DNA from: a virus
IMG/VR virus record: IMGVR_UViG_3300032285_003287
Span: 1-64,000 of that record
DNA: 64,000 nt
Reading direction: 5' to 3' (one strand)
The notes beneath the pieces are model-generated. The model searched no databases. It saw only the letters and a list, made by a program, of their open reading frames with translations, and was not told where the DNA came from. Of this stretch, positions 12,569 to 28,928 are shown one piece after another; the first letter of the stretch is position 1, and each line of letters starts with the position of its first letter. Position numbers and translations under genes: made by a program.

Positions 12569-12645
12569 GTAAGTTGTTGATTATTAATTATTTACGAAGC
12601 CGGGCTGGGCCCGGTCCCGTAACCCGTTGAAACATAGGCGTTTAC
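12569..12645. repeat. element B, copy 1 (box-4-core-4-box)
   Basis: gtaagttgttgattattaattatttac-gaag-CCGGGCTGGGCCCGG-tccc-gtaacccgttgaaacataggcgtttac. Confidence 0.9.
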
Positions 12646-12724
12646 AACTATTCGGAATAAAATTGTAAAAATTGCTTGCCACGCCACACAAAAAAGACGA
12701 TTATGAGGACTCACACAACACACC

Positions 12725-14944
12725 ATGATTACATCACAAAACACCGCATCAGTCTCCACTTCGGGTATCAAGTCTGCCGTTAGCTTTGGCATCAAAGACT
12801 CTGGACTCGCTCACATCTTCAATGTTCTACGCAATCAGCTTTACACCGACAAGATCGGTGCTGTTGTGCGTGAATACTCTGCCAATGCCTACGATGCCAA
12901 TGTCGAGGCTGGCAATAGCAATACGCCGATTGTAGTATCATTACCTTCGGCTCTCAATAAGGTTTTCAAGATCCGTGACTTCGGGCGTGGTTTGTCCGAG
13001 CAGGACATTCAAGACATTTATTGCTTCTACGGCGAAAGCACAAAGCGTCAGAGCAACGCTTTTATCGGTCAGCTTGGGCTTGGCTCCAAGAGTGCGTTTG
13101 CCTATGGTGACAACTTTGTTATCAATAGCTTCACGGATGGTGTCGTGCGTTCCTACAACGCTTTCATTGATCCTTCTGGTATCGGACAGATTGCCCTGCT
13201 ATCGTCCTCTGATACTTCCGAGCCTAATGGTGTTGAGATCGTCATTCCTGTTAAGATGGAGGATGCTCCCTACTTTGCCAAGTCGGTAAAGCAGTATCTC
13301 CGATTCTTTAAGGTTAAGCCTACTATCGTCGGCATGGATAAGGGCGAACTGGAACAGATGACGGCAGACCCTATCTCGTCTGGTGATGGATGGGCATACC
13401 ATCAGAATGTTAATGTGCCTCATGCTGTCATGGGTAACATCGCATACCCGATTGCGGGTCACTCTATGAAGCTGAACCTTTCTGATCCGAAAGACAAGGC
13501 TATCTCGACAATCCTCAATACCTCTATGGTCATCAATTTTGAGATCGGTGACTTGGATGTGGCGGCAAGCCGTGAGGGACTTCAATACACCCCTCACACG
13601 CTCAAGAATCTCCGTGACAAGATTTCTGTAATCGCTGACAAGATCGTATCAGAGATCCAGCAACAGATTAACGGCAAGGCTAATAGCCTGTATGCGGCAA
13701 AGCGTATGCTATCCGAGATGGATAACATGGTCGGTGGTTTCTATCACCTCCGTAGCTTGTTCACTAACCTTTCCTACAAGGGTATCAAGCTGACCAATGA
13801 TTATGTTTCGGTTCGCACACGCTCAACCGACAAGACGCTCAAGTTCCGAGTTATGCGTTATCAGAAGAACTGGAACGGCAATATCAATGCGTCCGAGACT
13901 GAAGAGTTCCAAGCTAGGCCAGATCATGTTCTGATTTTCAACGACCTTGGCAACTACAACTCTGGTGCTAGACACTCTCGTTACTACGCAGAGACTAACG
14001 ACAAGAAGGTTTTCATGTTCACGCCACAGATCGTAAAGATCGTCGGCAAGGACGAGAAGTATGGCACGATCAAAGCTACGGATCGTAGCTACGACAAGCA
14101 GATTGCCGAGATCAAGAAGCTGAACGGATTCTGTGACGATGACTTCATTCTCGCCTCGTCAATCGTTATCCCTGCTAATGCTGTAACTGGTAGTGCAACC
14201 AAGACCGCTAGGACTGGTGTTCTCCTGTTCAAGCCAGACGATGCTAACTCATGGCGTTCACGCAACGCTTGGGAGGAAGCCAAGGCAGACCTCAAGGATG
14301 GTAGTGGCGTTTATGTCCGAGTGAACAACTACAAGTTTGTTCCGATTGAATCCAATCGTGAGCCTTCCTGCCTCTCTTCGCTGTTGTCATCCTTCAAGGG
14401 ACTGATCGACTCCAAGAAGGTTGTCGGTGTCACGCAGTCACAGATCAAGAAGATGGGTGACGGATGGGTTTCACTTAAAGACCTTGCGATTGAGAAGTTC
14501 AACGAGTTCGTCCAGACTAACAATCTCGACCTGACCTCTGCGATTGCTAATACGCTTGCGGCTCCACAGATCCGAAACATCGGTGGTATCTGCGAGATCA
14601 ATCAGCCAAAGCATCAGAACACCCTGCTTGCTGGTATCAAGGATAATGGCATGAAGCAAGTTCTCAAGAGTGTGTTTGATTCTATCAACTCACAGAATCG
14701 CAGTCAGACAGGCAAGGTTGCAACTGCCCTCGCCATGATGGATCAGCTTGATGTCTTTGAAGTCAAGAAGGCTGACCTTGATCCTAACTTTGGCAAGACA
14801 CAGAATATCGCTAATGGTATCACGCAACTCTACAAGAAGCTAGTTGAGGCCAAGCCTATGCTGACGCTGTTAGATACTCGCTACTATCGTTGGAACCTTA
14901 ACGATAATACTATCAAGACTCTTGTTGACTATCTGAATAGCTAA
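12725..14944 (+). CDS. rIIA: rIIA-like protein (N-terminal GHKL/HSP90-like ATPase)
   Basis: LYTDKIGAVVREYSANAYDA, IRDFGRGLS, YGESTKRQSN..IGQLGLGSKSAFAY, ASREGLQY; adjacent to rIIB. Confidence 0.9.
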   Translation: MITSQNTASVSTSGIKSAVSFGIKDSGLAHIFNVLRNQLYTDKIGAVVREYSANAYDANVEAGNSNTPIVVSLPSALNKVFKIRDFGRGLSEQDIQDIYCFYGESTKRQSNAFIGQLGLGSKSAFAYGDNFVINSFTDGVVRSYNAFIDPSGIGQIALLSSSDTSEPNGVEIVIPVKMEDAPYFAKSVKQYLRFFKVKPTIVGMDKGELEQMTADPISSGDGWAYHQNVNVPHAVMGNIAYPIAGHSMKLNLSDPKDKAISTILNTSMVINFEIGDLDVAASREGLQYTPHTLKNLRDKISVIADKIVSEIQQQINGKANSLYAAKRMLSEMDNMVGGFYHLRSLFTNLSYKGIKLTNDYVSVRTRSTDKTLKFRVMRYQKNWNGNINASETEEFQARPDHVLIFNDLGNYNSGARHSRYYAETNDKKVFMFTPQIVKIVGKDEKYGTIKATDRSYDKQIAEIKKLNGFCDDDFILASSIVIPANAVTGSATKTARTGVLLFKPDDANSWRSRNAWEEAKADLKDGSGVYVRVNNYKFVPIESNREPSCLSSLLSSFKGLIDSKKVVGVTQSQIKKMGDGWVSLKDLAIEKFNEFVQTNNLDLTSAIANTLAAPQIRNIGGICEINQPKHQNTLLAGIKDNGMKQVLKSVFDSINSQNRSQTGKVATALAMMDQLDVFEVKKADLDPNFGKTQNIANGITQLYKKLVEAKPMLTLLDTRYYRWNLNDNTIKTLVDYLNS

Positions 14945-15019
14945 CAATTTGTGGTGAGGGAACGGGGGTGGAGCTATGTGGTGTGGCTCCACTCCCAACT
15001 CATTTAACTTAACTAACAT

Positions 15020-15065
15020 CCGGGCGGGGCCCGGCGCTGTAACCTGTTGATAATCAGTGCTTTAT
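15020..15065. repeat. element B, copy 2
   Basis: CCGGGCGGGGCCCGG-cgct-gtaacctgttgataatcagtgctttat. Confidence 0.9.
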
Positions 15066-15133
15066 GAACATTCGATTTTTTTTGTAAAAAAATGCTTGCC
15101 GCCACACACAAAAAAGACGATGATGAGGGAGTT

Positions 15134-15997
15134 ATGAACATCCCATACATTCTGACCGACCACTCGCTTACTGCGATCTTGGACGGCACTCCCTACACGA
15201 TCCAAAGCTCACACGAGAATTGGGCCGCAATCATCGACGCTATCAAGAATGATGCGTCTGAAGCTGAACTCCTCGACCTTATCGACACGGCAACTGCTGT
15301 GCAGGACTGGTCTGAAGGAGAGGTTGAGGTTATCAATGGTCATGTCTACTTCAATGGTGAAGTCATTCATGGAACTATTGTGGAAAAGATTTTGTCCTTT
15401 ATCAAGGATGGAATCTCGCCTACTCCTCTGGTCAAGTTCCTAACTAATCTGATGCAGAATCCTTCTCGTCGGAGCGTTAGCCAACTCTACTCGTTCCTTG
15501 AGCATGGTAATATGCCCATCACGCCAGATGGTCATTTCCTCGGCTACAAGAGCATCCGTGAGGATTGGATGGATCACTACTCTGGCAAGTTCTCTAACAA
15601 GGTTGGAGAAATCCTGTCAATGCCTCGCAACTCGGTTTGCGATGATGCTAACCTTGGATGCAGTTATGGCTTCCATGTCGGTTCGCTTGAGTATGCTACT
15701 AGCTTTGGCGGTAGTGATCGCAAGGTTGTGATCGTCAAGGTTAATCCTGCCGATGTGGTTAGCGTTCCTCACGACTGCGACTACCAGAAGATGAGGACTT
15801 CTCGTTACGAGGTCGTGGGTGTGTATGACGCTCCGCTTCCCGATAGCTACTACGATGGCTATGACAATGGGGACGATGACGACTACGAGCAGGAATGGAG
15901 CGAGCATGATGGCGAGGTCTACGGACGCAAGCCTAATGGTGACCGCTTTCACAATGTTAGGGACGGCAAGGGAAGGTTTGTAGCACGGAAGAGTTAA
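15134..15997 (+). CDS. rIIB: rIIB-like protein
   Basis: ITPDGHFLGYK, MPRNSVCDD...CSYGFHVGSLEYA, VKVNPADVVSVP.D..KMR; start moved to 15134 because 15092 overlaps the promoter. Confidence 0.9.
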   Translation: MNIPYILTDHSLTAILDGTPYTIQSSHENWAAIIDAIKNDASEAELLDLIDTATAVQDWSEGEVEVINGHVYFNGEVIHGTIVEKILSFIKDGISPTPLVKFLTNLMQNPSRRSVSQLYSFLEHGNMPITPDGHFLGYKSIREDWMDHYSGKFSNKVGEILSMPRNSVCDDANLGCSYGFHVGSLEYATSFGGSDRKVVIVKVNPADVVSVPHDCDYQKMRTSRYEVVGVYDAPLPDSYYDGYDNGDDDDYEQEWSEHDGEVYGRKPNGDRFHNVRDGKGRFVARKS

Positions 15998-16011
15998 GGG
16001 GTAAGGGGATA

Positions 16012-16041
16012 GCCGCTCTCGATAGGGGTATCGAGGGCGGC
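16012..16041 (+). terminator. stem-loop after rIIB
   Basis: gccgctctcgata-gggg-tatcgagggcggc. Confidence 0.55.
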
Positions 16042-16062
16042 ATTTCCGTGTAAATCATTTAA

Positions 16063-16135
16063 CGAGATGTGGCCCAATGGTTAAGGCGCTTGCTTTGGGA
16101 GCAAGATACTGGGAGTTCGAGTCTCCCCATCTCGA
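16063..16135 (+). tRNA. tRNA-Pro(TGG)
   Basis: CTTGC-ttTGGga-GCAAG; acceptor CGAGATG/CATCTCG. Confidence 0.92.
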
Positions 16136-16177
16136 GATTTTTAGTCTCAAACCCCTCTTTGTAGTGTAATAGTATAT

Positions 16178-16657
16178 ATGCCAAATATAAAATGCACTTC
16201 ATGCCTGAAAGAGGTAAGTAAGTTTGCCTATGAATTAAAATCAATTAATCTTGATTCATATACCTGTAAAGATTGTAGAATAAAGAGCTGTAGAGAGGAA
16301 AGAGTTTGCCCCATTTGCAATAAGAGTTTTATTACATTAAAAAAGGAAGATAAAAGAACCTGCTCATACTCTTGTTCTAATAAAATGTTTAGAACTGGGG
16401 AAAATAATGGCAACTGGAAAGAAAGTAGGTATAGAACCACTTGCTTTAATAAGCATGAAAAAAAATGTATCATTTGCGAAGAGAAAAATATAGTAGAGGT
16501 TCACCATCATGATCAAAATAAGAAAAACAATAAACCAGAAAATCTTATTCCACTATGCCCAACTCACCATCAGTATGTTCATAGCCGATTCTCGCATCTT
16601 GTAGTCCCATTAATTGAAAAATATAGGAAAAAGTTTATTGAACTTAACCTCAACTAA
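16178..16657 (+). CDS. HNH endonuclease
   Basis: CIICEEKNIVEVHHHDQNKKNNKPENLIPLCPTHH; GTGTAA-N8-ATG upstream. Confidence 0.9.
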   Translation: MPNIKCTSCLKEVSKFAYELKSINLDSYTCKDCRIKSCREERVCPICNKSFITLKKEDKRTCSYSCSNKMFRTGENNGNWKESRYRTTCFNKHEKKCIICEEKNIVEVHHHDQNKKNNKPENLIPLCPTHHQYVHSRFSHLVVPLIEKYRKKFIELNLN

Positions 16658-16660
16658 CAT

Positions 16661-16706
16661 CCCGGCGGGGCCCGGCGCCATAAGCGTCTAATAGTCAAAG
16701 ACTTAC
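16661..16706. repeat. element B, copy 3
   Basis: CCCGGCGGGGCCCGG-cgcc-ataagcgtctaatagtcaaagacttac. Confidence 0.85.
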
Positions 16707-17029: not shown

Positions 17030-17033
17030 AAAT

Positions 17034-17282: not shown

Positions 17283-17283
17283 T

Positions 17284-17574: not shown

Positions 17575-17667
17575 AGTCCTATAGTTTAACGGCAGAACGG
17601 CACTCTTATACAGTGTAAGCGGGGAGACGCCTGCGTGGTGAAGGTTCGAATCCTTCTAGGACTACCA
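17575..17667 (+). tRNA. tRNA-Ile(TAT) with long variable arm
   Basis: Acceptor AGTCCTA/TAGGACT+ACCA; GCACT-ctTATac-AGTGT; ~23-nt variable region with GCGGG/CCTGC stem. Confidence 0.85.
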
Positions 17668-18159
17668 ATTTTCATATTGCGGATTATGATGTTCTCGATG
17701 ACAATTAGCACAAAGCAAAATACATTTAGATACTTCCTTGAGACATTTTTCCCAATTCATCTTTAATAAAAAGCTTAGATTCATTGGCGTCTCCTTTTTA
17801 GATGGGTCTAAATGATGAAAATCTAATGCCGCCAAATTTTTATTGTAATCACATTTGCTACATTTTCCACCCAACTGATTAACGAGATCTTTCTTTCTCT
17901 GTATAGCACGATCTTTTTGTTGTTTATACCATCTACCGGCTTTTTTCATGGTACATGATCTAGAACAATAAATAGTTTGATTGCCTTCTAATTTTTTTGA
18001 ACAGATTACGCAGTTTTTTCTTTTACCTATGCTTCGTGTATTGTGATGTCCCCAAGGGGAGCATTCTAAACAAAACTTTCTTGCACCCAAATTCTTTTTT
18101 ACTCCATCTATTTTACAACAAGATGAAAAACTCCTTTGACAGTTAGCGCAAATCTTCAT
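17662..18159 (-). CDS. HNH endonuclease (antisense, in the tRNA region)
   Basis: GGKCSKCDY...ALDFHHLDP...KCILLCANCHREHH; stop overlaps the tRNA-Ile 3' end. Confidence 0.92.
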   Translation of the reverse strand: MKICANCQRSFSSCCKIDGVKKNLGARKFCLECSPWGHHNTRSIGKRKNCVICSKKLEGNQTIYCSRSCTMKKAGRWYKQQKDRAIQRKKDLVNQLGGKCSKCDYNKNLAALDFHHLDPSKKETPMNLSFLLKMNWEKCLKEVSKCILLCANCHREHHNPQYENW

Positions 18160-18743: not shown

Positions 18744-18817
18744 GCGTCGTTAGCCAAGCGGTTAGGCGGAGGTCTGCAAAACCTCTTAGATTGGTTCGAC
18801 TCCAATACGGCGCTCCA
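18744..18817 (+). tRNA. tRNA-Cys(GCA)
   Basis: GAGGT-ctGCAaa-ACCTC; U73 + CCA. Confidence 0.93.
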
Positions 18818-18891
18818 TTTGCTTGATAACCAACCACTTACACGACCGGGCCCCGCCGGGCGGCGTAACCCGCTCACCACAAACGAGTTAC
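18815..18891. repeat. element B, copy 4 (double box, inverted core) at the transcription convergence point
   Basis: ccatttgcttgataaccaaccacttac-acga-CCGGGCCCCGCCGGG-cggc-gtaacccgctcaccacaaacgagttac. Confidence 0.85.
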
Positions 18892-18905: not shown

Positions 18906-19661
18906 CTATTTCTCTAACACAAAACTCCAGTAGCGGCTATCCGTGTAGCCTTGGTTGCGATCCCACCAGATGCAACGGGCAACATAGGAACTAACATTCC
19001 ACATTTTGCACATTTGAATCCAATGACGCTCCATAGCGTGATACTGCTTGCTATCCTTGGACTGATCCAACCCGAATAGCTGGAACAAGTGAGTGTCCAT
19101 ACAAGTAACTTCGGCAATAGAAGGATAAACCATCTCAAGTGAGAAGCTAACCTTTGCCATACCAAGGCCAAGAACATTCTTGACCAGACGATCACGAAAC
19201 TCTACCCAAGATTCGTCATCAGCTTTCTTGTAGAAATCAAGATTAGCCCAATAGTGTTCAGCAAACGCAGTAATGAATTTAGTACGATTTTTATGGAGGC
19301 CAGCACCACTCTCTACGATCCTACGCTCAAGCTCCTCTGGCTTATTGAGCCACTCCCACCAGTTACGGATCATTAGGTATCCGTTAATGTTGGAACGCCA
19401 TGAGGTATGAACGCTCATAAAGGCAAACAACCAACGCTGAAACACTTCGGACGCATTACGAGGAACAACGCTGTCCCAATACTCCGAATACTCCTTGATC
19501 TCGCTGTCTAAAATTGAATTAAAAAACTTATCTACTTTCGTAGTATTAAGGCTAGGGCGGCTAGTAGGGATGATATGATAAGCATTATCCCAGAATCTTG
19601 ATTGTTCTGTTGCATTGTTATTAGGAGTTGAGATTGCGTTGCCGATGAAGTCGAGTTGCAT
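18906..19661 (-). CDS. HhH-GPD superfamily DNA glycosylase-like protein
   Basis: RDRLVKNVLGLGMAKVSF (HhH) followed by VTCMDTHL, as in Ogg-type N-glycosylases. Confidence 0.65.
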   Translation of the reverse strand: MQLDFIGNAISTPNNNATEQSRFWDNAYHIIPTSRPSLNTTKVDKFFNSILDSEIKEYSEYWDSVVPRNASEVFQRWLFAFMSVHTSWRSNINGYLMIRNWWEWLNKPEELERRIVESGAGLHKNRTKFITAFAEHYWANLDFYKKADDESWVEFRDRLVKNVLGLGMAKVSFSLEMVYPSIAEVTCMDTHLFQLFGLDQSKDSKQYHAMERHWIQMCKMWNVSSYVARCIWWDRNQGYTDSRYWSFVLEK

Positions 19662-19736: not shown

Positions 19737-19813
19737 GTAACCCCTTACATATCAATGACTTATGGCGCCGGGCGGGGAGAGCCTTTGTAACCCCTTAATT
19801 AAGAATGACTTAT
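19737..19813. repeat. element B, copy 5 (double box, degenerate core)
   Basis: gtaaccccttacatatcaatgacttat-ggcg-CCGGGCGGGGagagc-cttt-gtaaccccttaattaagaatgacttat. Confidence 0.85.
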
Positions 19814-20040: not shown

Positions 20041-20613
20041 CTATACTTTGGCATAACTTTTCCAGATGGTCAAGTCTAAATCTGCAGGAGATAGCTCCCG
20101 CTTCCAAGCTTCAGTTAAAAAGAGTTGCTCAAGAAGACCATACTTCTTTTTAGATGGTGTAGTCTTTGGAGCATCGTAACCCTGCTCACGCAACCACTTT
20201 AGAATATGCGTGTCAAGAACCGCAACCTTAGCTTCTTTCCTAGAGTGTAGAATAAAGAACCTTGCAGTCTTGGGGCCAATACCTTTAACGGACTCCAAAT
20301 CTTGTACGGTTATGGTCTTGAGCTTATAAGCAAAATCAACAATACCTTGAAATGCAGTCTTTAGCCTATTGTATTGACCTAGCTTGTGCCGCTTCATTTC
20401 TGTCATTAAAGCATTATCAATTAGTAATGCATTAATATATTCAAATGGTGAGTGATTGCTATAACCCCTGTCTATTTTTGTGGACAAAAACTCTTCTAGC
20501 TTCTGCGCTTGAGTCTTTGCGGTCTTGCCAGCAACAAGGATGGCAAACATAAGAAACTCTTCTAATTCTGATTCGGTACGATTGAAGTCGGTAATCTTTT
20601 CTGGAACGATCAT
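20041..20613 (-). CDS. HhH-GPD superfamily (Ogg-like) DNA glycosylase/lyase
   Basis: LESVKGIGPKTARFF (HhH with catalytic-position Lys), VAVLDTHILKWL, DLDLTIW. Confidence 0.8.
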   Translation of the reverse strand: MIVPEKITDFNRTESELEEFLMFAILVAGKTAKTQAQKLEEFLSTKIDRGYSNHSPFEYINALLIDNALMTEMKRHKLGQYNRLKTAFQGIVDFAYKLKTITVQDLESVKGIGPKTARFFILHSRKEAKVAVLDTHILKWLREQGYDAPKTTPSKKKYGLLEQLFLTEAWKRELSPADLDLTIWKSYAKV

Positions 20614-21314: not shown

Positions 21315-21360
21315 GTATCTTGTTGATAATCAGGCACTTACGCGACCGGGCCCCGCCCGG
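21315..21360. repeat. element B, copy 6 (inverted)
   Basis: gtatcttgttgataatcaggcacttac-gcga-CCGGGCCCCGCCCGG. Confidence 0.9.
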
Positions 21361-21447: not shown

Positions 21448-21657
21448 TCATACAGCGTCCTCCGATCCGCCGAAGAGCTGATCCCACTCCTCGCCTGTGA
21501 TGCCGGTCTTGTAGAACTCGCGCTCGTCGGCGTTGAGGTTGGGGAACGCGTTCTGGAGAAGCGCGCCGTTGGCGTAGGCCTCGACTTGGGCCTCGGTAAT
21601 GTTGAGGTCGAGGGTGCGGGTGATCTTACTGAAAGGTGAGGTACGGGTTACTTTCAT
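21448..21657 (-). CDS. conserved hypothetical phage protein
   Basis: RTSPFS...LLQNAFPNLNADEREFYKTGITGEEWD; leaderless promoter upstream. Confidence 0.8.
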   Translation of the reverse strand: MKVTRTSPFSKITRTLDLNITEAQVEAYANGALLQNAFPNLNADEREFYKTGITGEEWDQLFGGSEDAV

Positions 21658-21763
21658 ATGATCATCATACTACAATTTGCCCATATCACAACAAAAATCT
21701 TCTATGAATAAAAATTTATTTTTAATAAAAAGCTTGACACATCTCTTGTCTTACTATACAATA

Positions 21764-21809
21764 CCGGGCGGGGCCCGGCGCTGTAAGTCCTTGATCTTCA
21801 ACCACTTAG
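21764..21809. repeat. element B, copy 7, behind a plus-strand sigma70 promoter
   Basis: TTGACA(21734)-17-TACAAT, then CCGGGCGGGGCCCGG-cgct-gtaagtccttgatcttcaaccacttag. Confidence 0.9.
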
Positions 21810-21851
21810 GGAGGCGGCCCAATTGCCGCCCCCCTATGTTAGTTGCCGATG

Positions 21852-22652
21852 TTAGGCAGTCACGATCACTGCCTCGGCCTCCTCCGCCTGTGCCTCGACC
21901 GCTTGCTGGGCCGCGATGCCTGCCAGAGGATCAAGCAGGGCGTGGAGAGCGTCCGACCGACGAGGCAATGCCATTGCATTACCGCGCAGGACATTGGTGA
22001 AGGCGTTATGCAGGCCCCAGAGGTTGCGCTCGGAACCCCAAACATCGTGTTCGGGTTCGTGCCACTGGGACACCACATCGGCGAGCGCAGTCTTGGAGAC
22101 CGCGCCGCAACGATAGGCCTTCACGATCAGATCGTGAGCGTCCCTGTCCGCAATCGTGCAGGACTGGTAGGCCTCGACGCGCTTGGCGTGATTGCCCCAT
22201 GCGCTGGTGAGCTTACCGAACGCGCCAGCGAGGAGCATCGGAAGATCGCGCAGGATGAACTTTGTGTGACGACGAGCGATCTTGATCTCGTTGTGGAAGG
22301 CGAGGTTGTCGCAGACGAAAGGCGCGGAGCCAGCGTTGATGCCAGCAGGGAACGACTTGTCGTGCGAGTTACGCAGACCAATCACAGTTCCAACAGTCTC
22401 GGCAAGCGAGAAGTTCTTGAGGCCTCCGACCTGAAACAGGCCAAAGTACCGCTGACCATCACGAGCGAGAGCGTGACGCTCCTGCACGATTTCGAGGCCA
22501 GCAGTGTTGACGACTTCGCGCAGGCCTTCGACCAAGCGCGAGTGAGGGATCGGATGCCACGAATCAGTGGAGTTCGGGGTGATGGAGTTGGCGACCTGCT
22601 CCGTGGAGACTTCGTGACCGCCGCAGTGTAGTGTGAGGTTCAGTGTTTTCAT
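21852..22652 (-). CDS. DUF932 family protein
   Basis: WHPIPH...IGLRNSHDKSF..G...FVCDNLAF...RRHT...NLWGLHNAFT. Confidence 0.85.
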   Translation of the reverse strand: MKTLNLTLHCGGHEVSTEQVANSITPNSTDSWHPIPHSRLVEGLREVVNTAGLEIVQERHALARDGQRYFGLFQVGGLKNFSLAETVGTVIGLRNSHDKSFPAGINAGSAPFVCDNLAFHNEIKIARRHTKFILRDLPMLLAGAFGKLTSAWGNHAKRVEAYQSCTIADRDAHDLIVKAYRCGAVSKTALADVVSQWHEPEHDVWGSERNLWGLHNAFTNVLRGNAMALPRRSDALHALLDPLAGIAAQQAVEAQAEEAEAVIVTA

Positions 22653-22735
22653 GACTCTCTGATCATCCTACTTTTTGGCGTTCGGTACAATACCTTTTTC
22701 ACAATTTTTTGCGATTTCTTTTTGTGCGATTTCTG

Positions 22736-22894
22736 TTGACAGTCCGTAGAGCTAGTGTTTACGCGGCTCCATGGCGACCTTTGTCTACAGCCTACCCCCT
22801 ACCTACAGAGCCAGTATCTATGCGGGTCTACAGCGTAAGACAAACCGACCGGGCGGGGCCCGGCTGCGTAAGTCGCTGATATTCAACAACTTAT
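22736..22894. repeat. extended element B, copy 8 (TTGACA + two C boxes + core + box)
   Basis: C boxes at 22746 and 22805, core 22849-22863, box 22868-22894. Confidence 0.9.
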
Positions 22895-23017
22895 GCAGAT
22901 CCGGTACTGTAATGTTAAGTTATCGCATTTTCGTTTGTTTTTTTTATTTGTTTTTATTGAAGTGAATTGCAAGCGCTACTAACAAGCATATTAGTATGAA
23001 GGTCATGGCGCACGATG

Positions 23018-23701
23018 TTAAGCGGTTGCGATAACAAAGCCGGAATCGTCCTTTTTTCCTTTGCCCTTGGCAACGAGGCCGACGATCACGCCTTTCGGGT
23101 CGAGGAATCGGAGATCCGTTTCGTCACCATTCACGACAGGCTTGCCGAGATAGGTTTCGGGAAGTTTGCCAGCAAACACGGCGGCGATGTTTCCCGTTGT
23201 CTTGGCGAATAGTTCGACAAGGTGTTGATTGTTCTCCTTGCGTGAGAAAGTCAGGTGATAGTTTTCGGGAAGCTCGCCGTTAATGAAAGCAATCATGCGC
23301 TTGGGATTTGGCGTGTAGTCATAAAAGGTGACTTCAGGAAAAGCCCTCATGTCGATCAGATTTTCCCACGGCAGATCGGAGAGGACATTCAACCGCACGG
23401 CAAGTTTCATGCTTTTCTTTTTCGCGTTCTTAATGGCAAGAGAGAGTTCCTTTTTAAGTTGGGCAAGGAAAGCGTCTTTCTGTTCTATGAAGTAACGGGA
23501 TTTTTTGAATCGTGCCTCTTGAACATTAGAAAACGCGCCCATGCCCGAAGTGTTGAGACAAGCGGCGGCGCAACCTTCCGAAGCGTGAGAGCAAAAGTTT
23601 TTTCCCGAAAGATTGTAGGGAATGAGAGACAGGCCAAGCGTGAGCCAACCGAGTTTTTCGCCTTTGCGGATTTTTGTGTTGTTTGGTGATAGGAGTTTCA
23701 T
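23018..23701 (-). CDS. Gp88-like protein (radical-SAM-like cysteine cluster)
   Basis: NFCSHASEGCAAACLNTSGMG, VRLNVLSD, FYDYT, NYHLTFS, GDETDLRFLDP...GLVAKG. Confidence 0.85.
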   Translation of the reverse strand: MKLLSPNNTKIRKGEKLGWLTLGLSLIPYNLSGKNFCSHASEGCAAACLNTSGMGAFSNVQEARFKKSRYFIEQKDAFLAQLKKELSLAIKNAKKKSMKLAVRLNVLSDLPWENLIDMRAFPEVTFYDYTPNPKRMIAFINGELPENYHLTFSRKENNQHLVELFAKTTGNIAAVFAGKLPETYLGKPVVNGDETDLRFLDPKGVIVGLVAKGKGKKDDSGFVIATA

Positions 23702-23742
23702 GGTTCTATGATTTTGATTATTTTTTGCCGTAGTGTCAACGA

Positions 23743-24249
23743 TCAATTTTCTGGATCCCAATCAGAGGATCCTTCACGGACAGCCATGCCAGCAGGTTCC
23801 GTATCCGTTGCCCAACCCATAAAGTTTTCGCGTGTGATTGCGTCGAGCGTGTCCTGTGCCGCTTGCAGGGCATCAGTCTTGAACTTTTCCGACTTGCCTT
23901 TGTATTGCTTGCTGATCGGAGAATCTTGCCAGAGGCGAATGTTTTCCCATGTAAGACCACGGATGATGTCGGCTTCTGTCGTGAGAAAGTATGCAAAGCT
24001 CTCTCCGATGTAGTGAAGGAACCCATCACCAAGCGTTTGTCCGTTGCTCACCCATCCTCCCTCGTCGTCAATGTTGCTTGTGACATTTGCGCCAGCGATG
24101 CCGAGATTAAAGTAGCGGTTGAAAGATCGTTCAATCTGTGCGCGAGTGCCAGAGAGTCCGAAGGCAAGGCCGTTGCCGTATGAGCTAATGACTTCAGAGG
24201 CGAAGGCGTTGGAGGCGGTGCTAGTGGTTTGGGTTGTGTTGTTTGTCAT
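23743..24249 (-). CDS. hypothetical protein
   Basis: Leaderless-type promoter upstream; TGA stop fused to the next -35 (TGAtcgTTGACA). Confidence 0.75.
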   Translation of the reverse strand: MTNNTTQTTSTASNAFASEVISSYGNGLAFGLSGTRAQIERSFNRYFNLGIAGANVTSNIDDEGGWVSNGQTLGDGFLHYIGESFAYFLTTEADIIRGLTWENIRLWQDSPISKQYKGKSEKFKTDALQAAQDTLDAITRENFMGWATDTEPAGMAVREGSSDWDPEN

Positions 24250-24327
24250 GGTTCAAAACTATCCGATGCCGTCACGAATTGCGAGAAGTTTTTTTCGTTT
24301 GGGCAAAACTTTTTTATGAGAAACTTG

Positions 24328-24486
24328 TTGACAGCCTGCAGGCCCAGTATTTATGCGGCTCCGCGGGCTAGTTCGTCTAGAGCCGGTAGGGTAGCCGCAG
24401 AGCCAGTATTTATCAGCCTTCGACATTGTATGACAACTCGCCGGGCGGGGCCCGGTGCTGTAAGTCGTTGATTTGTAGTGACTTAG
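24328..24486. repeat. extended element B, copy 9
   Basis: C boxes at 24338 and 24397, core 24441-24455, box 24460-24486 (contains the stop of 24483-24914). Confidence 0.9.
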
Positions 24487-24914
24487 AACGATTGAGTCTC
24501 TCGGAGGTATGTTAGGCGGTTATTTGTCATTAAGTAGACCTCTTCTAGCCTCTGAAGTGGACGATTTAATCCTAGGTCGTGAATTGATCCGTTTATGATA
24601 GCAAAAGCGTGTTTATTAGTTGCGACATAGTAGCGACCAGTTGGGTTCTCTTTAATGAACCTCTGAATCGTGATACTTTTGTAACGCTTTTTCTTGTATG
24701 TTATGCCATATTCCTTTTTAGCATATTTAAGTAATTTTTTTGGATCAAATCCATGACCATTTTTTCTACCAGCTTCGCGGCCTATCTTGTGGGCATACTC
24801 GTAAGGTATGCCAGCACTTGTCGCCAAGGCTCGGATTGTGCAGTCTCTTTGCTCGGCAATTCCAGACTTGAACCTTCCAGAGTCGGAGCAGATTGTTCGT
24901 GATTTTAAATCCAT
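24483..24914 (-). CDS. putative papain-like (C39-like) cysteine protease-fold protein
   Basis: RDCTIRALA...HAFAIING..HD (Cys/His/Asp spacing). Confidence 0.55.
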   Translation of the reverse strand: MDLKSRTICSDSGRFKSGIAEQRDCTIRALATSAGIPYEYAHKIGREAGRKNGHGFDPKKLLKYAKKEYGITYKKKRYKSITIQRFIKENPTGRYYVATNKHAFAIINGSIHDLGLNRPLQRLEEVYLMTNNRLTYLRETQSF

Positions 24915-25061
24915 TTTTAGAAAGTTGGAGCCCTCCTGAGTGTTTTACGACTTCCTTTTAACTCAGACCTCCAGTGTAGTCGAGAGGCCAGCGGGACTTT
25001 GCTGGTTTGGCGTTGGTGCGTTCCCTATTGCGGGCTTCGTACACCTTTATCACCAAAGATT

Positions 25062-25328
25062 TTAGGCGATCAGTTCAAACCTAACGATGCGATCCAAGCG
25101 GAACCTGCGGATGTCATCCACGGCAGGGACATAGCAGGTGATTCCCTCGCCAGCGGGATTCTTCGTGCCACGATCCTCCTTGTAGAAGAACTTGGCAAAC
25201 GGACGAGACACCTGATACTCTTTCGGCTCAAAGCGGTTAGACTCTGCCTTGTAGACGATCTTGTAGGTATTGAGAAGGCCCAGCTTGTAGGCGATTTTCG
25301 TGAAGAACAGGTTAAGGTTGGTTTTCAT
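25062..25328 (-). CDS. hypothetical protein (SH3/WYL-like C-terminus)
   Basis: DIRRFRLDRIVRF; CAA-rich leader. Confidence 0.7.
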   Translation of the reverse strand: MKTNLNLFFTKIAYKLGLLNTYKIVYKAESNRFEPKEYQVSRPFAKFFYKEDRGTKNPAGEGITCYVPAVDDIRRFRLDRIVRFELIA

Positions 25329-25397
25329 TGTTTTTGTGTTTTGGGTTTGTTGTTGTTGTTTAGTGTGATTCTATTTTTACAATTTTTGGGCAAGATG

Positions 25398-25607
25398 TCA
25401 ATAGTCGATTTTGATATTTTTTGCCGCCCTGTATGCCGAGATCATTTCACCGATGCGGTTGCGGCTCATCTTTGTCATGCCGCTAGTGATTCCCCAGTAG
25501 CGTTTGGTTTCCTTGTGTGCTTTAATCTCTCCCTGAATGGCAAGGATCAGATAGGTGCGAATGTTGCAGACATTGGTGAAGTTCAGTGTGGTGTTCTTAT
25601 TTTTCAT
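25398..25607 (-). CDS. hypothetical protein
   Basis: MKNKNTTLNF...; own TTGACG promoter. Confidence 0.6.
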   Translation of the reverse strand: MKNKNTTLNFTNVCNIRTYLILAIQGEIKAHKETKRYWGITSGMTKMSRNRIGEMISAYRAAKNIKIDY

Positions 25608-25651
25608 GGTATGATTATGAGGGTTAAGGGTTGATTTGTAAAGCGTCAAAA

Positions 25652-25786
25652 TTACTTTTCGGTAACTTTTTTCTGTGCTTGTTTCCAAGCATTCCAGCGA
25701 GCTTTGCGGGAAGCCCATTTTTGAGCTTCACGATTGTAACGAGCGATCTCCCACTCTTGGGAGGTTTGAGTATTCTTATTGTTCAT
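25652..25786 (-). CDS. hypothetical protein (44 aa)
   Basis: MNNKNTQTSQEWEIARYNREAQKWASRKARWNAWKQAQKKVTEK. Confidence 0.5.
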   Translation of the reverse strand: MNNKNTQTSQEWEIARYNREAQKWASRKARWNAWKQAQKKVTEK

Positions 25787-25864
25787 GCTGTAAGCGTATC
25801 ATGGACGCACAAAAAAATCGAGAAAAAAATGCGGCTAGGTGAAACTTTTTTTTAACGAAAAGTG

Positions 25865-26022
25865 TTGACAGCTGCAGGGCTAGTGTTTATGCGGGTCTAC
25901 GGGCTACTTCGTCTAGAGGCCACAGGGTAGCTCTAGAGGCCCATACAATGCGGATCCGCAAGGGGCGACCGACTGACCGGGCGGGGCCCGGCTCTGTAAG
26001 TCGTTGATTAGTAGGCTTTTAT
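25865..26022. repeat. extended element B, copy 10
   Basis: C boxes at 25874 and 25933, core 25977-25991, box 25996-26022 (contains the last codons and stop of 26008-26265). Confidence 0.9.
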
Positions 26023-26265
26023 GAAGATTGGAGTGTATTCGCCCATGTACGCGCCCTCGATGTTAAATTCAAAGTATTCCCATGCTTCTTCTTCATTCAT
26101 TCCTTGGGATATTAGCTTTTTGATTATTTTATTGACATCATATGCCAGCACACGATTGAGACCACAGCGATAGGCTGTGCCGATAATCGCCTTATCAAAC
26201 CCATCAACCTTAAGTGCGTCTGGATCAACAGAGTCCAGCACTTGCTTTAAGATATCAGCTCTCAT
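26008..26265 (-). CDS. conserved hypothetical phage protein
   Basis: DGFDKAIIG...AYD...EEAWEYFEFNIEGAYMGEYTPIF. Confidence 0.85.
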   Translation of the reverse strand: MRADILKQVLDSVDPDALKVDGFDKAIIGTAYRCGLNRVLAYDVNKIIKKLISQGMNEEEAWEYFEFNIEGAYMGEYTPIFIKAY

Positions 26266-26419
26266 AGTCACCTCCGATATCAAAGCGGTCTTCGTATTGC
26301 TGTTCTAGGTAGCGGTCGGGCTGGATTTCATCCATGTCCCTAGGGGTGTGACCTAGCTCATGCTCGTCGTTGTAGATTTCGGGCTGGTTTTCGTCTTCGG
26401 GGTCTGTGATGGTGAGCAT
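26255..26419 (-). CDS. small acidic protein
   Basis: MLTITDPEDENQPEIYNDE...LEQQYEDRFD. Confidence 0.6.
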   Translation of the reverse strand: MLTITDPEDENQPEIYNDEHELGHTPRDMDEIQPDRYLEQQYEDRFDIGGDYES

Positions 26420-26450
26420 AATCTGATTAAAAGATTTTTTGGTTATGGTG

Positions 26451-26675
26451 TCAAGCACCGATAGTTTCACGAAACACTTGAAAGCCACGAACGATATGCG
26501 AGATATCACCAGTAGCGTTGCAGAGTGCATCTGCGATACTGATCGCGCAGTCGCGCTCAAGCTGAAGCTGAAGCAACTTCTTCATTACCTCCCTCGGAGG
26601 CATACCGGCAGTATGCTCCTCAAGAGCGTTAAGCATCAGATCAAAGTCTGCTTTGGTGAATTGTTTCTTAATCAT
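26451..26675 (-). CDS. hypothetical protein
   Basis: TAATG overlap with the upstream gene. Confidence 0.6.
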   Translation of the reverse strand: MIKKQFTKADFDLMLNALEEHTAGMPPREVMKKLLQLQLERDCAISIADALCNATGDISHIVRGFQVFRETIGA

Positions 26676-26941
26676 TATTTTACTCCTAGGGATTTGATGG
26701 TTTTGTTGAACTCCTGTTCCTGCTTGATCCGATATGCCTCTGGATCTTGAAACGGAGTCTGTGCGTAGGAGACATCGTTCCAATGAAAGGAAGGGACGCC
26801 CCATGAGTTAGCCTCGTAGGTTGCGGCACTATGCTTGACAGCAAGGTGCGCCCAGTAGAGGGAGGTTGCGAGTGAGTCGATCACACCAAAGGTGAGGGCG
26901 ACGATTGCGATGATACCGATTTGCTTTGTGGTGTTGTTCAT
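26675..26941 (-). CDS. small membrane protein
   Basis: MNNTTKQIGIIAIVALTFGVI...AVKHSAATYE...FHWND. Confidence 0.65.
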   Translation of the reverse strand: MNNTTKQIGIIAIVALTFGVIDSLATSLYWAHLAVKHSAATYEANSWGVPSFHWNDVSYAQTPFQDPEAYRIKQEQEFNKTIKSLGVK

Positions 26942-26972
26942 ATTCTTATTGAATGCGGTGTTGGTATTTTTA

Positions 26973-27230
26973 TTAGTTGTGGGGCTTGTTGGCTTCCTCA
27001 CCAAAATAGTTTGCGATGCCTTCATCCCAGTTTTCGGCAACGGAATCGCATAGCCTTTCCAAAAGCTCACGGAGCCTTGCGACCTCGTTGGTTTTCTCGG
27101 CGAGTTCGCGTTCTAGTTCTTCGGCATGGTTAGCCATGTATACATAGGCTTCATAATCGGTTCTTAAATTACAAAAGGCTTTGTTTCTTTCGACATCAGT
27201 CCTCGGCGTTGGTGTGGTTTCGGGGTTCAT
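26973..27230 (-). CDS. TPRTD-motif coiled-coil protein
   Basis: TPTPRTDVE...AEELERELAE. Confidence 0.7.
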   Translation of the reverse strand: MNPETTPTPRTDVERNKAFCNLRTDYEAYVYMANHAEELERELAEKTNEVARLRELLERLCDSVAENWDEGIANYFGEEANKPHN

Positions 27231-27257
27231 AGAGTAATTAAAATTCTTTTTTATTGT

Positions 27258-27392
27258 TCAGTCAACCCAAATGTTCGGGTTGCCATGCTCTTGCACGATG
27301 GCTTCCAGTTCGTCGAGCCAAGCCTCGTATTCAGAGGCGTAAGCGGCGAGATCTTCAGCGGCGAATTGTTTAGGGTCGATTAGTAGTTCCAT
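27258..27392 (-). CDS. small acidic protein (44 aa)
   Basis: MELLIDPKQFAAEDLAAYASEYEAWLDELE...; leaderless promoter. Confidence 0.6.
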   Translation of the reverse strand: MELLIDPKQFAAEDLAAYASEYEAWLDELEAIVQEHGNPNIWVD

Positions 27393-27515
27393 GATTAGAG
27401 CATAGCACCGGCATCGTAGATTACAACACTTTTTTTTGAATTTTTTTCGTGCCATAAAGAAAAAAGCTTGACAGCGCAATGGTGTGCATGGTACAATTGT
27501 GTAAGACAACCGCCG

Positions 27516-27561
27516 CCGGGCTGGGCCGGGCGCTGTAAGCTGTTGATCTTCAGCTACTTAT
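27516..27561. repeat. element B, copy 11, behind a plus-strand promoter
   Basis: TTGACA(27468)..TACAAT, gtaagacaa, CCGGGCTGGGCCGGG-cgct-gtaagctgttgatcttcagctacttat. Confidence 0.9.
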
Positions 27562-27562
27562 G

Positions 27563-27727
27563 TTAATGCTTGTAACCCCATGTGACTGAGGCAGTTATCA
27601 TTGCGGCAGAAACCCAGTAACTAACATCACCAAACTTGCCAGCAAACGCCCATCTTGTGGCGTTGATAACATAGAGGGACATAATGACATAGTTAAAGAA
27701 GCGAGGATCAGTGATGAATTTGTACAT
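27563..27727 (-). CDS. small membrane protein
   Basis: MYKFITDPRFFNYVIMSLY...YWVSAAMITASVTWG. Confidence 0.6.
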   Translation of the reverse strand: MYKFITDPRFFNYVIMSLYVINATRWAFAGKFGDVSYWVSAAMITASVTWGYKH

Positions 27728-27852
27728 ATTATTTTTGGTATTTTTCTTTTCGCCTGTAGATTTTTTTACTAGGAACAGCGCGTTGTACAGGTGCATACGG
27801 CTGTCTTACCTTGATATCTTTCAGTTGTATCGCAAATCGTTCGGTTTTCATT

Positions 27853-28083
27853 CTATTCTGCTGGGCAGTTCTCCCAGTACCAGTCGTTGTACATTTCCTT
27901 CCATTCTGCCTTGAAGTAGTCCATCTGTGCGGCGGTGTAGCTGAACAGATAGTTCAGACGAGCGACAATGGGAGCGATGTCGTTCTCTGTGAACGATTGC
28001 TCCATCGTCTGCCAGAGGGAGTTCTCGTTCATGGAACGGAGGATGAGTTCTTGTGTGGTGTTGTTGGTGATGTCAATTTTCAT
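27853..28083 (-). CDS. hypothetical protein
   Basis: 76-aa ORF with leaderless-type promoter. Confidence 0.65.
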   Translation of the reverse strand: MKIDITNNTTQELILRSMNENSLWQTMEQSFTENDIAPIVARLNYLFSYTAAQMDYFKAEWKEMYNDWYWENCPAE

Positions 28084-28121
28084 GTTTAGAGTATGAGTGT
28101 TGAGGGTTGATTTGTCGAGAA

Positions 28122-28409
28122 CTATTTTTTGAGTTGCATCTCTAATTGACGGATTTTTTGCTCAAGCTCTTTCGTGTGTCTACGATAGAAAGCCAGATCC
28201 TGTTCATAGGTTCCAACCGCAAAAATCAGATTTTCGATTTGCTGATCTTTGGTTCCCGACATGATGATCGGATCGTCGAAGCGTTCCTTGTTCATTCGCT
28301 TCTGTTCCCTGTCCATCAGATCGGACTGGATTCTTTCGTGTCTAGCTTCTGGCGTTTCACCGCCACAGACGACTTTGAAGCTACGGAGTGGGTATTTGTA
28401 TGATCTCAT
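28122..28409 (-). CDS. hypothetical coiled-coil protein
   Basis: 95-aa ORF in the minus-strand run. Confidence 0.65.
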   Translation of the reverse strand: MRSYKYPLRSFKVVCGGETPEARHERIQSDLMDREQKRMNKERFDDPIIMSGTKDQQIENLIFAVGTYEQDLAFYRRHTKELEQKIRQLEMQLKK

Positions 28410-28413
28410 ATTT

Positions 28414-28548
28414 TTATTTCCTTTCGATGTAGTTGTTTAGATTGTTGATGACTGCTTGATTCGCCTTGGTGATCTCTTCCAGCTTTTTAGCAAAGGCAAG
28501 GAGGCGAACTTCTAGGGGATTCTGTTTGGGGGCTTTTCTTCTTTTCAT
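28414..28548 (-). CDS. small basic protein (44 aa)
   Basis: MKRRKAPKQNPLEVRLLAFAKKLEEI...; TTGCAA-17-TAGAAT-type promoter. Confidence 0.55.
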   Translation of the reverse strand: MKRRKAPKQNPLEVRLLAFAKKLEEITKANQAVINNLNNYIERK

Positions 28549-28600
28549 GATTCTATTCTGTCAGGTTTTCCGATTATTGCAAGATTTATTTTTTCTTTTT

Positions 28601-28756
28601 TTATTCTTCCTCTGGTTCAAACTCTGCCCATTCTCCGCAATCCTTGCAGAGAGCGATGAAGCCATTCTGTTCTAGAACGGGTGATAGTGGGCTATTCGTT
28701 GCGCCACAGCAGTTGCTGACTAGCTTTACCTCTTTGAGTGTTTCTTTATCTTTCAT
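28601..28756 (-). CDS. small Zn-ribbon protein
   Basis: SNCCGA...CKDCGEWAEF. Confidence 0.65.
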   Translation of the reverse strand: MKDKETLKEVKLVSNCCGATNSPLSPVLEQNGFIALCKDCGEWAEFEPEEE

Positions 28757-28882
28757 GCTATGAGCATAGCCTAGAACACTGAAAAACACAAGATCTTTTT
28801 TTCGTTTGTGTGAATTTTTTTTGACGATTGTGCTTGACGGCGAGGCGGCTTTCTGTTATACTACCCTGTAAGACAACCGCCG

Positions 28883-28928
28883 CCAGGCGGGGCCCGGCGC
28901 TGTAAGTTGTTGATACTGAGCTACTTAC
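28883..28928. repeat. element B, copy 12, behind a plus-strand promoter
   Basis: TTGACG(28834)-17-TATACT, gtaagacaa, CCAGGCGGGGCCCGG-cgct-gtaagttgttgatactgagctacttac. Confidence 0.9.

Follow-up and report, generated by a model that had tools for sequence, protein, structure and literature searches.

The early region of an uncultivated phage carries twelve copies of a composite intergenic element, in which a GC-rich palindrome and an AT-rich palindrome stand at a fixed distance from each other, and related phages have exchanged gene blocks with junctions at these copies. The DNA analysed, hereafter the window, is the first 64 kb (64,000 nucleotides) of the 81.7-kb IMG/VR record IMGVR_UViG_3300032285_003287, for which CheckV estimates a completeness of 53%. 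The elements are genuine, under strong selection and confined to one phage lineage. We explain them best, with a probability of roughly 0.45, as bipartite sites on duplex DNA that would be bound by protein, would act as boundaries or operators by early promoters, and would also serve as joints for cassette recombination. This reading starts from the conservation, geometry, position and exchange junctions of the elements; from these we infer the binding, the kind of protein that may be involved and an effect on transcription.

A 46-bp composite of two palindromes in fixed geometry

The GC palindrome (core), CCGGGCGGGGCCCGG, occurs at 11 sites of the window with 0-2 mismatches: 12600, 15020, 16661, 18846(-), 21346(-), 21764, 22849, 24441, 25977, 27516 and 28883. 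Even with up to 3 mismatches allowed, 0.14 sites are expected by chance, and 0 of 100 shuffles came near the observed number. A twelfth core at 19768 is half-degenerate (CCGGGCGGGGAGAGC) and has lost its 3' arm. All 12 copies lie within 12.6-28.9 kb, and the whole 81.7-kb record holds no further core. At 12 of 12 cores, a 27-bp AT-rich dyad begins exactly 4 nt 3' of the GGG strand. Three elements are two-sided, with a dyad-to-dyad period of exactly 50 bp (12569/12619, 18815/18865 and 19737/19787), and the dyads of the window total 15. The dyad half-site, GTAAGTCGTTGAT, is found 10 times at up to 2 mismatches compared to 1.56 expected occurrences. On a gene map based on conservation all elements are intergenic; dyads overlap the stop codons of the minus-strand open reading frames (ORFs) 24483-24914, 26008-26283 and 28925-29068. 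Successive cores among the last five are separated by 1592, 1536, 1539 and 1367 bp. An earlier note on this DNA had described twelve intergenic cores, 15 dyads at a constant 4 bp with a 50-bp period where two-sided, stop codons supplied by the dyads at 24483 and 26008, and intervals of 1.37-1.59 kb between the last five cores. Remeasurement bears this out, with 11 good copies and one degenerate copy (19768) and with 28925-29068 as a third stop-codon case.

When 83 copies from 8 genomes were stacked, no gap was needed at any position, and the geometry is thus free of indels. This, like the conservation of the 4-nt spacer as CGCY, was newly recognised in the present analysis. The stack yields the consensus CCSGGC-GGG-GCCSGG for the core, CGCY for the spacer and GTAAGTCGTTGAT-ww-TCARnnnAYTTAY for the dyad, which can also be written GTAAGTCGTTGAT-n-ATCARnnACTTAY. 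Conservation within the dyad amounts to 76-99% at TTA and (A)TCAA and drops to 56-76% at the four bases that separate them. On the opposite strand, the proximal dyad half runs ATCAA-CGAC-TTA, and its best conserved bases are those that the IHF consensus, WATCAANNNNTTR, specifies. Two proposals of the earlier note gain from these data, namely the likeness of the dyad to an IHF site, as conservation is concentrated on the specified bases, and the view of the fixed geometry as a nucleoprotein site, as geometry and sequence are conserved beyond what a hairpin would need.

If the core acted as a hairpin, its positions 3 and 13 would pair. With a near-duplicate genome omitted, the combinations G..C, G..G, C..C and C..G were counted 29, 19, 21 and 1 times, respectively (Fisher p = 0.0034). 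One altered arm is common, and two altered arms, by which a perfect stem is restored, are almost absent (1 copy of the C..G form versus roughly 6-8 expected). In the dyad, the more one half deviates from the half-site consensus, the less the other half does (rho = -0.52, p = 3e-6); as the copies are kin by descent and have possibly undergone gene conversion, the Fisher and Spearman p-values are optimistic and indicative only. About 60% of the cores have a central mismatch, with a predicted hairpin energy of -4.6 or -7.1 kcal/mol; a perfect core, whose GC stem of 6 bp encloses a 3-nt loop, reaches -10.3 kcal/mol. Folded as RNA, the dyad reaches a mean of -3.5 kcal/mol with neither strand preferred, and the folding of core and dyad shows no strand asymmetry. 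The sequence is conserved over a stretch of 32 nt, which includes the unpaired spacer. Judged from these comparisons, it is the sequence, not the pairing, that appears to be under selection, and the retention of 'at least one good half-site' is what palindromic operators show when protein dimers bind them as duplex DNA.

The same measurements bear on the idea that the elements are plain structural signals, in which the GC palindrome is a bidirectional RNA terminator or stabiliser hairpin, the dyad a weaker hairpin and recombination passive. The elements lie past stop codons and tRNA ends and ahead of promoters, with two-sided forms at convergent junctions, the perfect core has a stable GC stem, GC palindromy survives across clades despite sequence change, and the stem-loops of promoter-early stem-loop (PeSL) cassettes terminate transcription in reporter assays (PMC2839356), all of which would agree with such signals. 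They would, however, have to tolerate the many mismatched cores with the compensating C..G form nearly missing, weakly folding dyads whose halves degenerate reciprocally and do not co-vary, and a conserved stretch that extends across an unpaired spacer. Moreover, neither core nor dyad leads into a T run on either strand, so that a U tract is missing, and a terminator scan of the region returned 19 sites versus 18.2 in shuffles, which is no excess of intrinsic terminators. Some cores have a separate terminator-like hairpin a short way upstream, as is seen past rIIA and past the DUF932 gene, and the core is thus not needed as a terminator. We regard a purely structural role as unlikely.

Exchange junctions, promoters and the phages that carry the elements

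Relatives found through rIIA (52% identity) have the same composite at syntenic positions, and a pattern scan of IMG/VR together with whole-record searches located it in at least 8 further contigs. Each relative holds 12-15 copies, always confined to one region of 17-20 kb; two of the relatives are complete genomes of 140.5 and 154.4 kb. Across 596 Gb of bacterial genomes, only 12 single core-dyad hits were obtained, all in high-GC organisms and at chance level, which excludes a host repeat. The distant rIIA relatives L004 and L005 have no analogous elements, merely repeated sigma70 promoters.

Contigs of sister clades were reached through a widespread 69-aa protein. In L058-L060, and more loosely in L061 and L117, the dyad is retained (7-9 half-site hits per 8 kb), and the GC palindrome differs: it reads GGGCCC-N2-3-GGGCCC, lacks the 4-nt spacer and in almost all cases has dyads on both sides, at a period of 42 bp. 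In L058, L059 and L060 these elements are followed by tandem sigma54-like promoters (TGGCAYG-N4-YTGCTT) before small early genes (e.g. L058:2580-2660, 4300-4360 and 5440-5500); no sigma54 promoters were found in the window's clade. An activator of the bacterial enhancer-binding protein type was not found in the L058-L060 records, where the Sigma54_activat hits reflect weak AAA+ similarity, mainly of a RuvB-like ATPase, and the RuvB-like ATPase of the window is without a GAFTGA loop. That the dyad is kept while the GC palindrome is swapped suggests that the two may be separable recognition modules. As the composite persists across promoter types, a boundary, insulator or general architectural role is favoured over a promoter-specific one.

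Among five genomes, 82 of 427 ends of homology blocks lie at most 25 bp from an element, a 3.2-fold enrichment over random placement (25.9 ± 5.0; maximum 45 in 2,000 trials), and the ends peak at the 5' edge of the core. Compared to the relative G001, the rIIA-rIIB-tRNA block of the window is inverted and exchanged with a block carrying two glycosylase genes, and the junctions of this rearrangement are all at elements (12600 and 18846 in the window; 8133, 9664 and 16166 in G001). G001 furthermore has two extra cassettes in place of the single window element 27516 and an additional unit of a small gene plus an element at 28113/28126. Element 27516 is itself a mosaic by homology, its left flank matching e18635 of G002 and its core, dyad and right flank e17547 of G006. 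Two inverted one-sided elements enclose the gene of the 69-aa protein in the window, in G001 and in G006, and G008 has one dyad-core-dyad and no such gene; this fusion of two one-sided elements shows the origin of two-sided forms. Finally, G002 and G007, which are 97-98% identical, differ by a 424-bp cassette that lies between two direct elements in G002. The alignments at this cassette overlap by 26 bp, equal to core, spacer and GTAAGT, a pattern that marks a crossover within the element. The earlier note had considered that gene blocks might be gained, lost, inverted or reordered with junctions at core or dyad, and the block ends, the rIIA block, the 424-bp cassette and the mosaic at 27516 agree with this.

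Such junctions might be the work of a dedicated integron- or Xer-like cassette exchange with the core as crossover site, the dyad as accessory bend and a recombinase that is unrecognised or comes from the host. Junctions at the core edge or within core and spacer would be expected of it, as would the G008 fusion with its gene loss, where only the palindromic core supplies direct-repeat homology, and the presence of both inversions and deletions; a core with an adjacent IHF-like site also recalls lambda attP. However, no gene for a tyrosine recombinase (PF00589), a serine recombinase (PF00239) or a Y1 transposase/RAYT (PF01797) was found in G000, G001, G002, G006 and G007, two of which are complete, while the control genomes responded. 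Integron-type cassettes are promoterless and of one orientation, whereas the cassettes here have their own promoters, and the elements point both ways in a same-strand array. Sequence is conserved, whereas attC conserves mainly structure, and the 3-nt centre of the core matches no known recombinase class. Short-homology recombination or slippage between repeats of 26-77 bp, as proposed for PeSLs, also explains every observed event, and purifying selection alone would retain only recombinants with an intact element. The integron-like or tyrosine-recombinase system that had been suggested for the window is not supported, given the missing recombinase genes, the promoters of the cassettes and an element orientation untied to that of the genes, and we consider dedicated exchange improbable. 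Similarly doubtful to us is an unrecognised machine of phage or host origin that would both insulate early units and drive cassette exchange at the core without a tyrosine or serine recombinase, the AT dyad being the site of a shared bender and the GC core conferring clade specificity. A miniature inverted-repeat transposable element or other transposon was rejected, as there are no target duplications, copies are mostly one-sided and a Y1 transposase is missing.

Elements 12600, 15020, 16661 and 21346 are co-oriented with their genes and show promoter-like boxes on the dyad side, either AAATTGTAAAAAT or TTGACA-17-TATACT. From 21764 to 28883, the elements are anti-oriented and point against the minus-strand cassette genes. 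The G001 genes at 8-28 kb are all on one strand, yet the elements split 6 versus 9 by orientation. In both orientation classes the core-proximal dyad half is better conserved than the distal one (mismatches 2.9 versus 4.2 when co-oriented and 1.6 versus 4.3 when anti-oriented). Conservation thus tracks the core, not the mRNA strand, which argues against an mRNA-level signal.

On the core-sense strand, anti-oriented elements are preceded by TGT-N3-ACA boxes (GTAAGACAA or TTGTCTTAC), and the short forms have in addition a near-consensus sigma70 promoter with an UP-like tract (TTGACA-N17-TATACT or TACAAT), which in at least 8 copies stops 1 nt short of the core. In a second promoter class, TTGACA lies 5-6 nt past the dyad. 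Some elements of the window have a sigma70-type promoter (plus strand: 21734, 27468 and 28834; minus strand: 21309), as have at least 8 in relatives; elsewhere it is missing or replaced. The promoters of anti-oriented copies point away from the cassette genes, and the minus-strand cassette genes have their own promoters further on, often of leaderless type. Three elements take a long form, a conserved architecture of ~165 bp that comprises TTGACAG and two ~30-nt hairpin modules, the latter at an invariant 59-bp period. These modules (22731-22848, 24323-24440 and 25859-25976) have a conserved loop, AGTGTTTATGC, and variable, partly compensating stems, and operator-like tandem TGT-N3-ACA palindromes lie close to them.

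Promoters that aim into the core in at least 8 copies, always core-sense, could yield abundant short structured noncoding RNAs, which would serve as decoys or pair, as antisense RNAs, with the 3' ends of cassette genes. The ~30-nt modules do fold slightly better in the core sense (-9.9 versus -8.35 kcal/mol, p = 0.012), with some G-U and compensatory pairs. In the short forms, however, the predicted start is within the core, so that the RNA could not form the core hairpin; the promoter is missing at orthologous positions of G002, and co-oriented elements have no such promoter. RNAalifold assigns the modules a consensus structure of only -8.4 kcal/mol with 1 pair changed on both sides, an Rfam scan of the window returned nothing except tRNAs, so that the elements match no curated family, and core plus dyad are without strand asymmetry. 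With an anti-covarying core and that single double-changed pair, the elements do not behave as a structured RNA family, and a role through such transcripts is very improbable. A hairpin promoter of the N4 type was rejected as well, since pairing in the hairpin is not under selection and the phage encodes a tape measure and a sigma factor in place of a virion RNA polymerase. The minus strand reads ATCAACGACTTAC and resembles the T7-like promoter ACGACTCAC, with a would-be melting region that is GC-rich; a search for T7-type RNA polymerase (PF00940) gave no match, but the control genomes were silent too.

Orientation and spacing bear on a further proposal, in which the elements are architectural or DNA-traffic signals, i.e. 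polar sequences like Chi or the FtsK-orienting polar sequences (KOPS), import handles, topological barriers or gyrase sites like those of bacterial interspersed mosaic element 2 (BIME-2). The cores are clustered, G-rich and mostly of one orientation in G002 and G007, and recombination junctions coincide with the elements, as is the case for Chi-type hotspots. Set against this are the mixed orientation within G001, which also changes between relatives after block inversions, a 46-bp composite that far exceeds an 8-mer polar signal, and 'terminal repeats' of 124 bp in G002. The core reads GGGCGGGG or GGGCTGGG where KOPS is GGGNAGGG, and thus has G where KOPS wants A (position 5). The spacing of elements in relatives ranges from 368 bp to >3 kb, so there is no periodicity. 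Periodic handles and the likeness to KOPS, which had both been put forward for the window, consequently lose their footing, the former on the spacing and the latter on the defined A and the mixed orientations, and we take traffic signals to be extremely improbable.

The reading as protein-bound boundary or operator sites, which we prefer, can be worded as a mechanism. The module would be a 15-bp GC palindrome with a 27-bp AT palindrome 4 bp (CGCY) off, the core-proximal AT half mattering most. One or more sequence-specific dimeric proteins of phage or host would assemble on it into a fixed nucleoprotein complex, possibly with an IHF/HU-type bender among them that binds the AT dyad. Such complexes would stand at the borders of units transcribed by host RNA polymerase (sigma70-type) in the early, hyperplastic region, i.e. 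past stops and tRNA ends and against promoters, and might act there as operator, roadblock or insulator in either orientation. As a side effect, recombination among 12-15 near-identical copies in 17-20 kb, with crossover in the core, the spacer or the start of the dyad, would delete, insert and invert ORFan cassettes and so reshuffle them, as PeSLs do.

Several observations weigh against this mechanism. Between the window (18846-18860) and G002 (9478; L006:9478-9492), only the loop of the core is inverted, CCC versus GGG, arms and flanks being the same. Such a loop-only inversion is a signature of hairpin-mediated template switching and suggests that hairpin extrusion of the core does occur in vivo. 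In the sister clades the GC sequence changes and palindromy is kept, which fits a dimeric binder that co-evolves and hairpin or cruciform selection equally. Only part of the region's strong promoters adjoin an element. Genes for HU/IHF and ParB were not found in the five genomes searched for recombinases, two of them complete, where controls responded; for HU/IHF as for tyrosine recombinases, the search of the remaining genome proposed in the earlier note thus returned nothing. These searches pointed to no binding protein. The kinship of the copies, finally, tempers the pairing statistics. As to candidate partners, a ParB/KorB-type binder was dismissed as no gene was found, the RuvB-like gene beside the cluster as specific partner because it occurs in element-free relatives as well, and the 69-aa protein as binder because it is acidic and very widespread (>533 IMG/VR loci).

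Gene map and other features of the record

The coordinates of the elements and of the main genes are listed in Table 1. Gene frames of the early region were assigned by conservation between genomes. Genes are mostly on the plus strand at 10.7-17.5 kb and on the minus strand from ~18.9 to 33 kb; the latter is confirmed by the Pfam hits of DUF932 and GP88 and by higher cross-genome identity in the minus frames. The G+C content is 45-51% across 12-30 kb and 31-44% in the remaining sequence. Cassette genes match no Pfam family or only PHROGs of unknown function.

Table 1 Positions of the composite elements and of selected genes in the window
Feature	Position	Strand	Composition and surroundings
Element 1, two-sided	12569-12645	+	dyad 12569-12595, core 12600-12614 (CCGGGCTGGGCCCGG), dyad 12619-12645; between ORF 12046-12465 and rIIA, at synteny junction A/C
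Element 2	15020-15065	+	core 15020-15034, spacer CGCT, dyad 15039-15065; between rIIA and rIIB; a separate GC hairpin (~14950-14985) lies upstream, directly past the rIIA stop
Element 3	16661-16706	+	core 16661-16675, dyad 16680-16706; begins 4 nt past the stop of the HNH gene; relatives lack that gene and have a tRNA and a left dyad there
Element 4, two-sided	18815-18891	-	dyad 18815-18841, core 18846-18860 (GGG on minus), dyad 18865-18891; convergent junction, left dyad abutting tRNA-Cys, right dyad adjoining the stop of ORF 18906-19661; synteny junction C/B
Element 5, degenerate, two-sided	19737-19813	+	dyad 19737-19763, half-decayed core 19768-19782, dyad 19787-19813; within a 370-bp stretch missing from G001
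Element 6	21315-21360	-	core 21346-21360, dyad 21315-21341; co-oriented with minus-strand genes; followed on the minus strand by sigma70-type promoter TTGACA-17-TATACT (21309-21281)
Element 7	21734-21809	+	UP-like A/T tract, TTGACA-17-TACAAT (21734-21762), 1 nt, core 21764-21778, dyad 21783-21809; anti-oriented to the DUF932 gene; brackets the 69-aa gene together with element 6
Element 8, long form	22731-22894	+	TTGACAG, two ~30-nt hairpin modules, GTAAGACAA box, core 22849-22863, dyad 22868-22894
Element 9, long form	24323-24486	+	core 24441-24455, dyad 24460-24486 containing the stop of ORF 24483-24914 (-)
Element 10, long form	25859-26022	+	core 25977-25991, dyad 25996-26022 containing the stop of ORF 26008-26283 (-)
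Element 11, short form	27468-27561	+	TTGACA-18-TACAAT (27468-27497), GTAAGACAA box, core 27516-27530 (CCGGGCTGGGCCGGG), dyad 27535-27561
Element 12, short form	28834-28928	+	TTGACG-17-TATACT (28834-28862), GTAAGACAA box, core 28883-28897 (CCAGGCGGGGCCCGG), dyad 28902-28928 overlapping the stop of ORF 28925-29068 (-)
UvdE UV-endonuclease	8876-9784	+	
ORF	12046-12465		left of element 1
rIIA	12725-14944		
rIIB	15092-15997		
HNH endonuclease	16178-16657	+	between tRNA-Pro and the core of element 3
Ogg/HhH-type DNA glycosylase, first of two paralogues	18906-19661	-	
Ogg/HhH-type DNA glycosylase, second of two paralogues	20041-20613	-	
DUF932 gene	21852-22652	-	
Sigma70-family sigma factor	35838-36536		
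Large terminase subunit	38607-40508		
Tape-measure protein	starts 59101		>1,600 aa

In the large terminase subunit, identity to known phages does not exceed 24%, and no close cultured relative was found by DNA comparison. The Rfam scan identified 9 tRNAs in the window. Together with the UvdE gene, the two glycosylase paralogues, the second of which is missing in G002, form a cluster of genes of the DNA-repair type. The RuvB-like protein (10693-11700, plus strand, 335 aa) is a clamp loader according to PHROGs and a full-length divergent RuvB homologue with RuvB_N and a RuvB_C winged helix (PDB 7pbl, E = 1.7e-18; NCBIfam RuvB 115 bits, cut-off 282), and it is kept in all relatives, element-free ones included. 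The 69-aa protein is encoded at 21448-21657 on the minus strand, flanked by the two inverted elements. It belongs to phrog_20898, carries the motif ...QNAFPNLxADEREFxKTGI...EEWD and occurs in 103 protein clusters.

The HNH gene resembles a homing-type insertion that abuts element 3 at the place of the relatives' left dyad. A 165-aa ORF (17662-18159, minus strand) lies opposite to the plus-strand tRNA block, has no counterpart in G002 and is 99.4% identical to its counterpart in G001, where its neighbours reach ~85-90%; it is possibly a recently exchanged mobile gene.

A motif, (G)TGTAAwT, stands shortly upstream of many late and other genes (e.g. 3106, 16165, 35280, 40535, 47447, 49240, 51040, 53270, 55755 and 59080) and is a candidate promoter of the phage's sigma factor; the AAATTGTAAAAAT box after co-oriented elements is related to it. 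The record strongly avoids CCWGG over its whole length (9 sites versus ~92 expected), and CCGG is depleted ~3-fold outside cores in the early region, not elsewhere. These deficits hint at restriction pressure from the host. A restriction-site explanation of the elements (CCSGG) was dropped, as CCSGG shows no clear depletion outside cores and no tie to the elements was established. A prepilin-like protein (545-982, plus strand) weakly matches Verru_Chthon cassette protein B below the cut-off (E = 1.1e-10, 41.9 bits versus 51.4) and is the sole clue hinting at a verrucomicrobial host.

Comparison with known systems

The BIME-1 (also RIB or RIP) elements of E. coli consist of repetitive extragenic palindromic units of 35-40 bp, i.e. 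GC palindromes, that flank an IHF site, and hundreds of copies occur on the host chromosome. They share with the phage elements a GC palindrome joined to an IHF-consensus site and a location outside genes at the 3' ends of transcription units. Here, in contrast, the core has 15 bp, the element is confined to a phage clade and occurs in bacterial genomes no more often than by chance, no RAYT/Y1 transposase accompanies it, and the IHF site is predicted. Mycobacteriophage stoperators, the sites of L5 gp71, are asymmetric, 13 bp long and oriented with transcription in temperate phages, and the KorB operators of RK2 are 13-bp palindromes bound by a ParB-family protein. Both systems have many intergenic copies of one protein site, which is predicted here, at variable distance from promoters, and a global effect on transcription is a feature of those systems. 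The phage elements differ from them in being a bipartite pair of palindromes of 46 bp and in lacking a ParB gene. As with attC and lambda attP, imperfect palindromes border cassettes, exchange junctions fall at the site and an IHF-like site lies beside a short palindromic core. Unlike in those systems, there is no integrase, cassettes have their own promoters, orientations are mixed and sequence rather than structure is conserved. The halovirus HF2 has classes of 29-58-bp intergenic repeats that are tied to promoters (PMC8707807); as described, these are AT-rich promoter repeats of an archaeal virus, without the geometry of GC palindrome and dyad.

The sharp 46-bp signature makes the elements searchable and allows cassettes to be delimited automatically. 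The half-site statistics predict a specific DNA-binding protein, for which the element could be used as bait. With the dyad kept and the GC palindrome swapped, the sister clades offer a natural experiment on the evolution of a composite site, and the defined cassette borders are available for engineering these phages.

The closest parallel is found in the PeSL cassettes of T4-type myoviruses (Arbiol et al. 2010, PMC2839356; Comeau et al. 2014, PMC4122927). In both cases, many conserved intergenic composites crowd into hyperplastic regions that are rich in small ORFans, sigma70-type promoters preceded by AT-rich tracts accompany, here in some of the copies, a G/C-rich (here potential) stem-loop at variable relative position, and junctions of indels or replacements between relatives fall in the motif. 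The lineage described here differs in having a long tape-measure protein, rIIA/B, its own sigma factor and no close cultured relative. Its elements add a second, 27-bp AT dyad at a fixed 4 bp, and the sequence of the core is conserved and anti-covarying. Many copies are anti-oriented to genes, with a promoter that has no co-directional gene, and the ~165-bp long forms contain two extra modules. For PeSLs, terminator and promoter activity as well as mini-circles have been demonstrated (PMC2839356, PMC4122927). If our reading is true, they would represent a second, independently built version of the PeSL principle, in an uncultivated lineage far from T4, by which regulatory boundaries double as joints for swapping host-takeover genes. 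The elements appear to resemble PeSLs in function and differ from them in anatomy and lineage.

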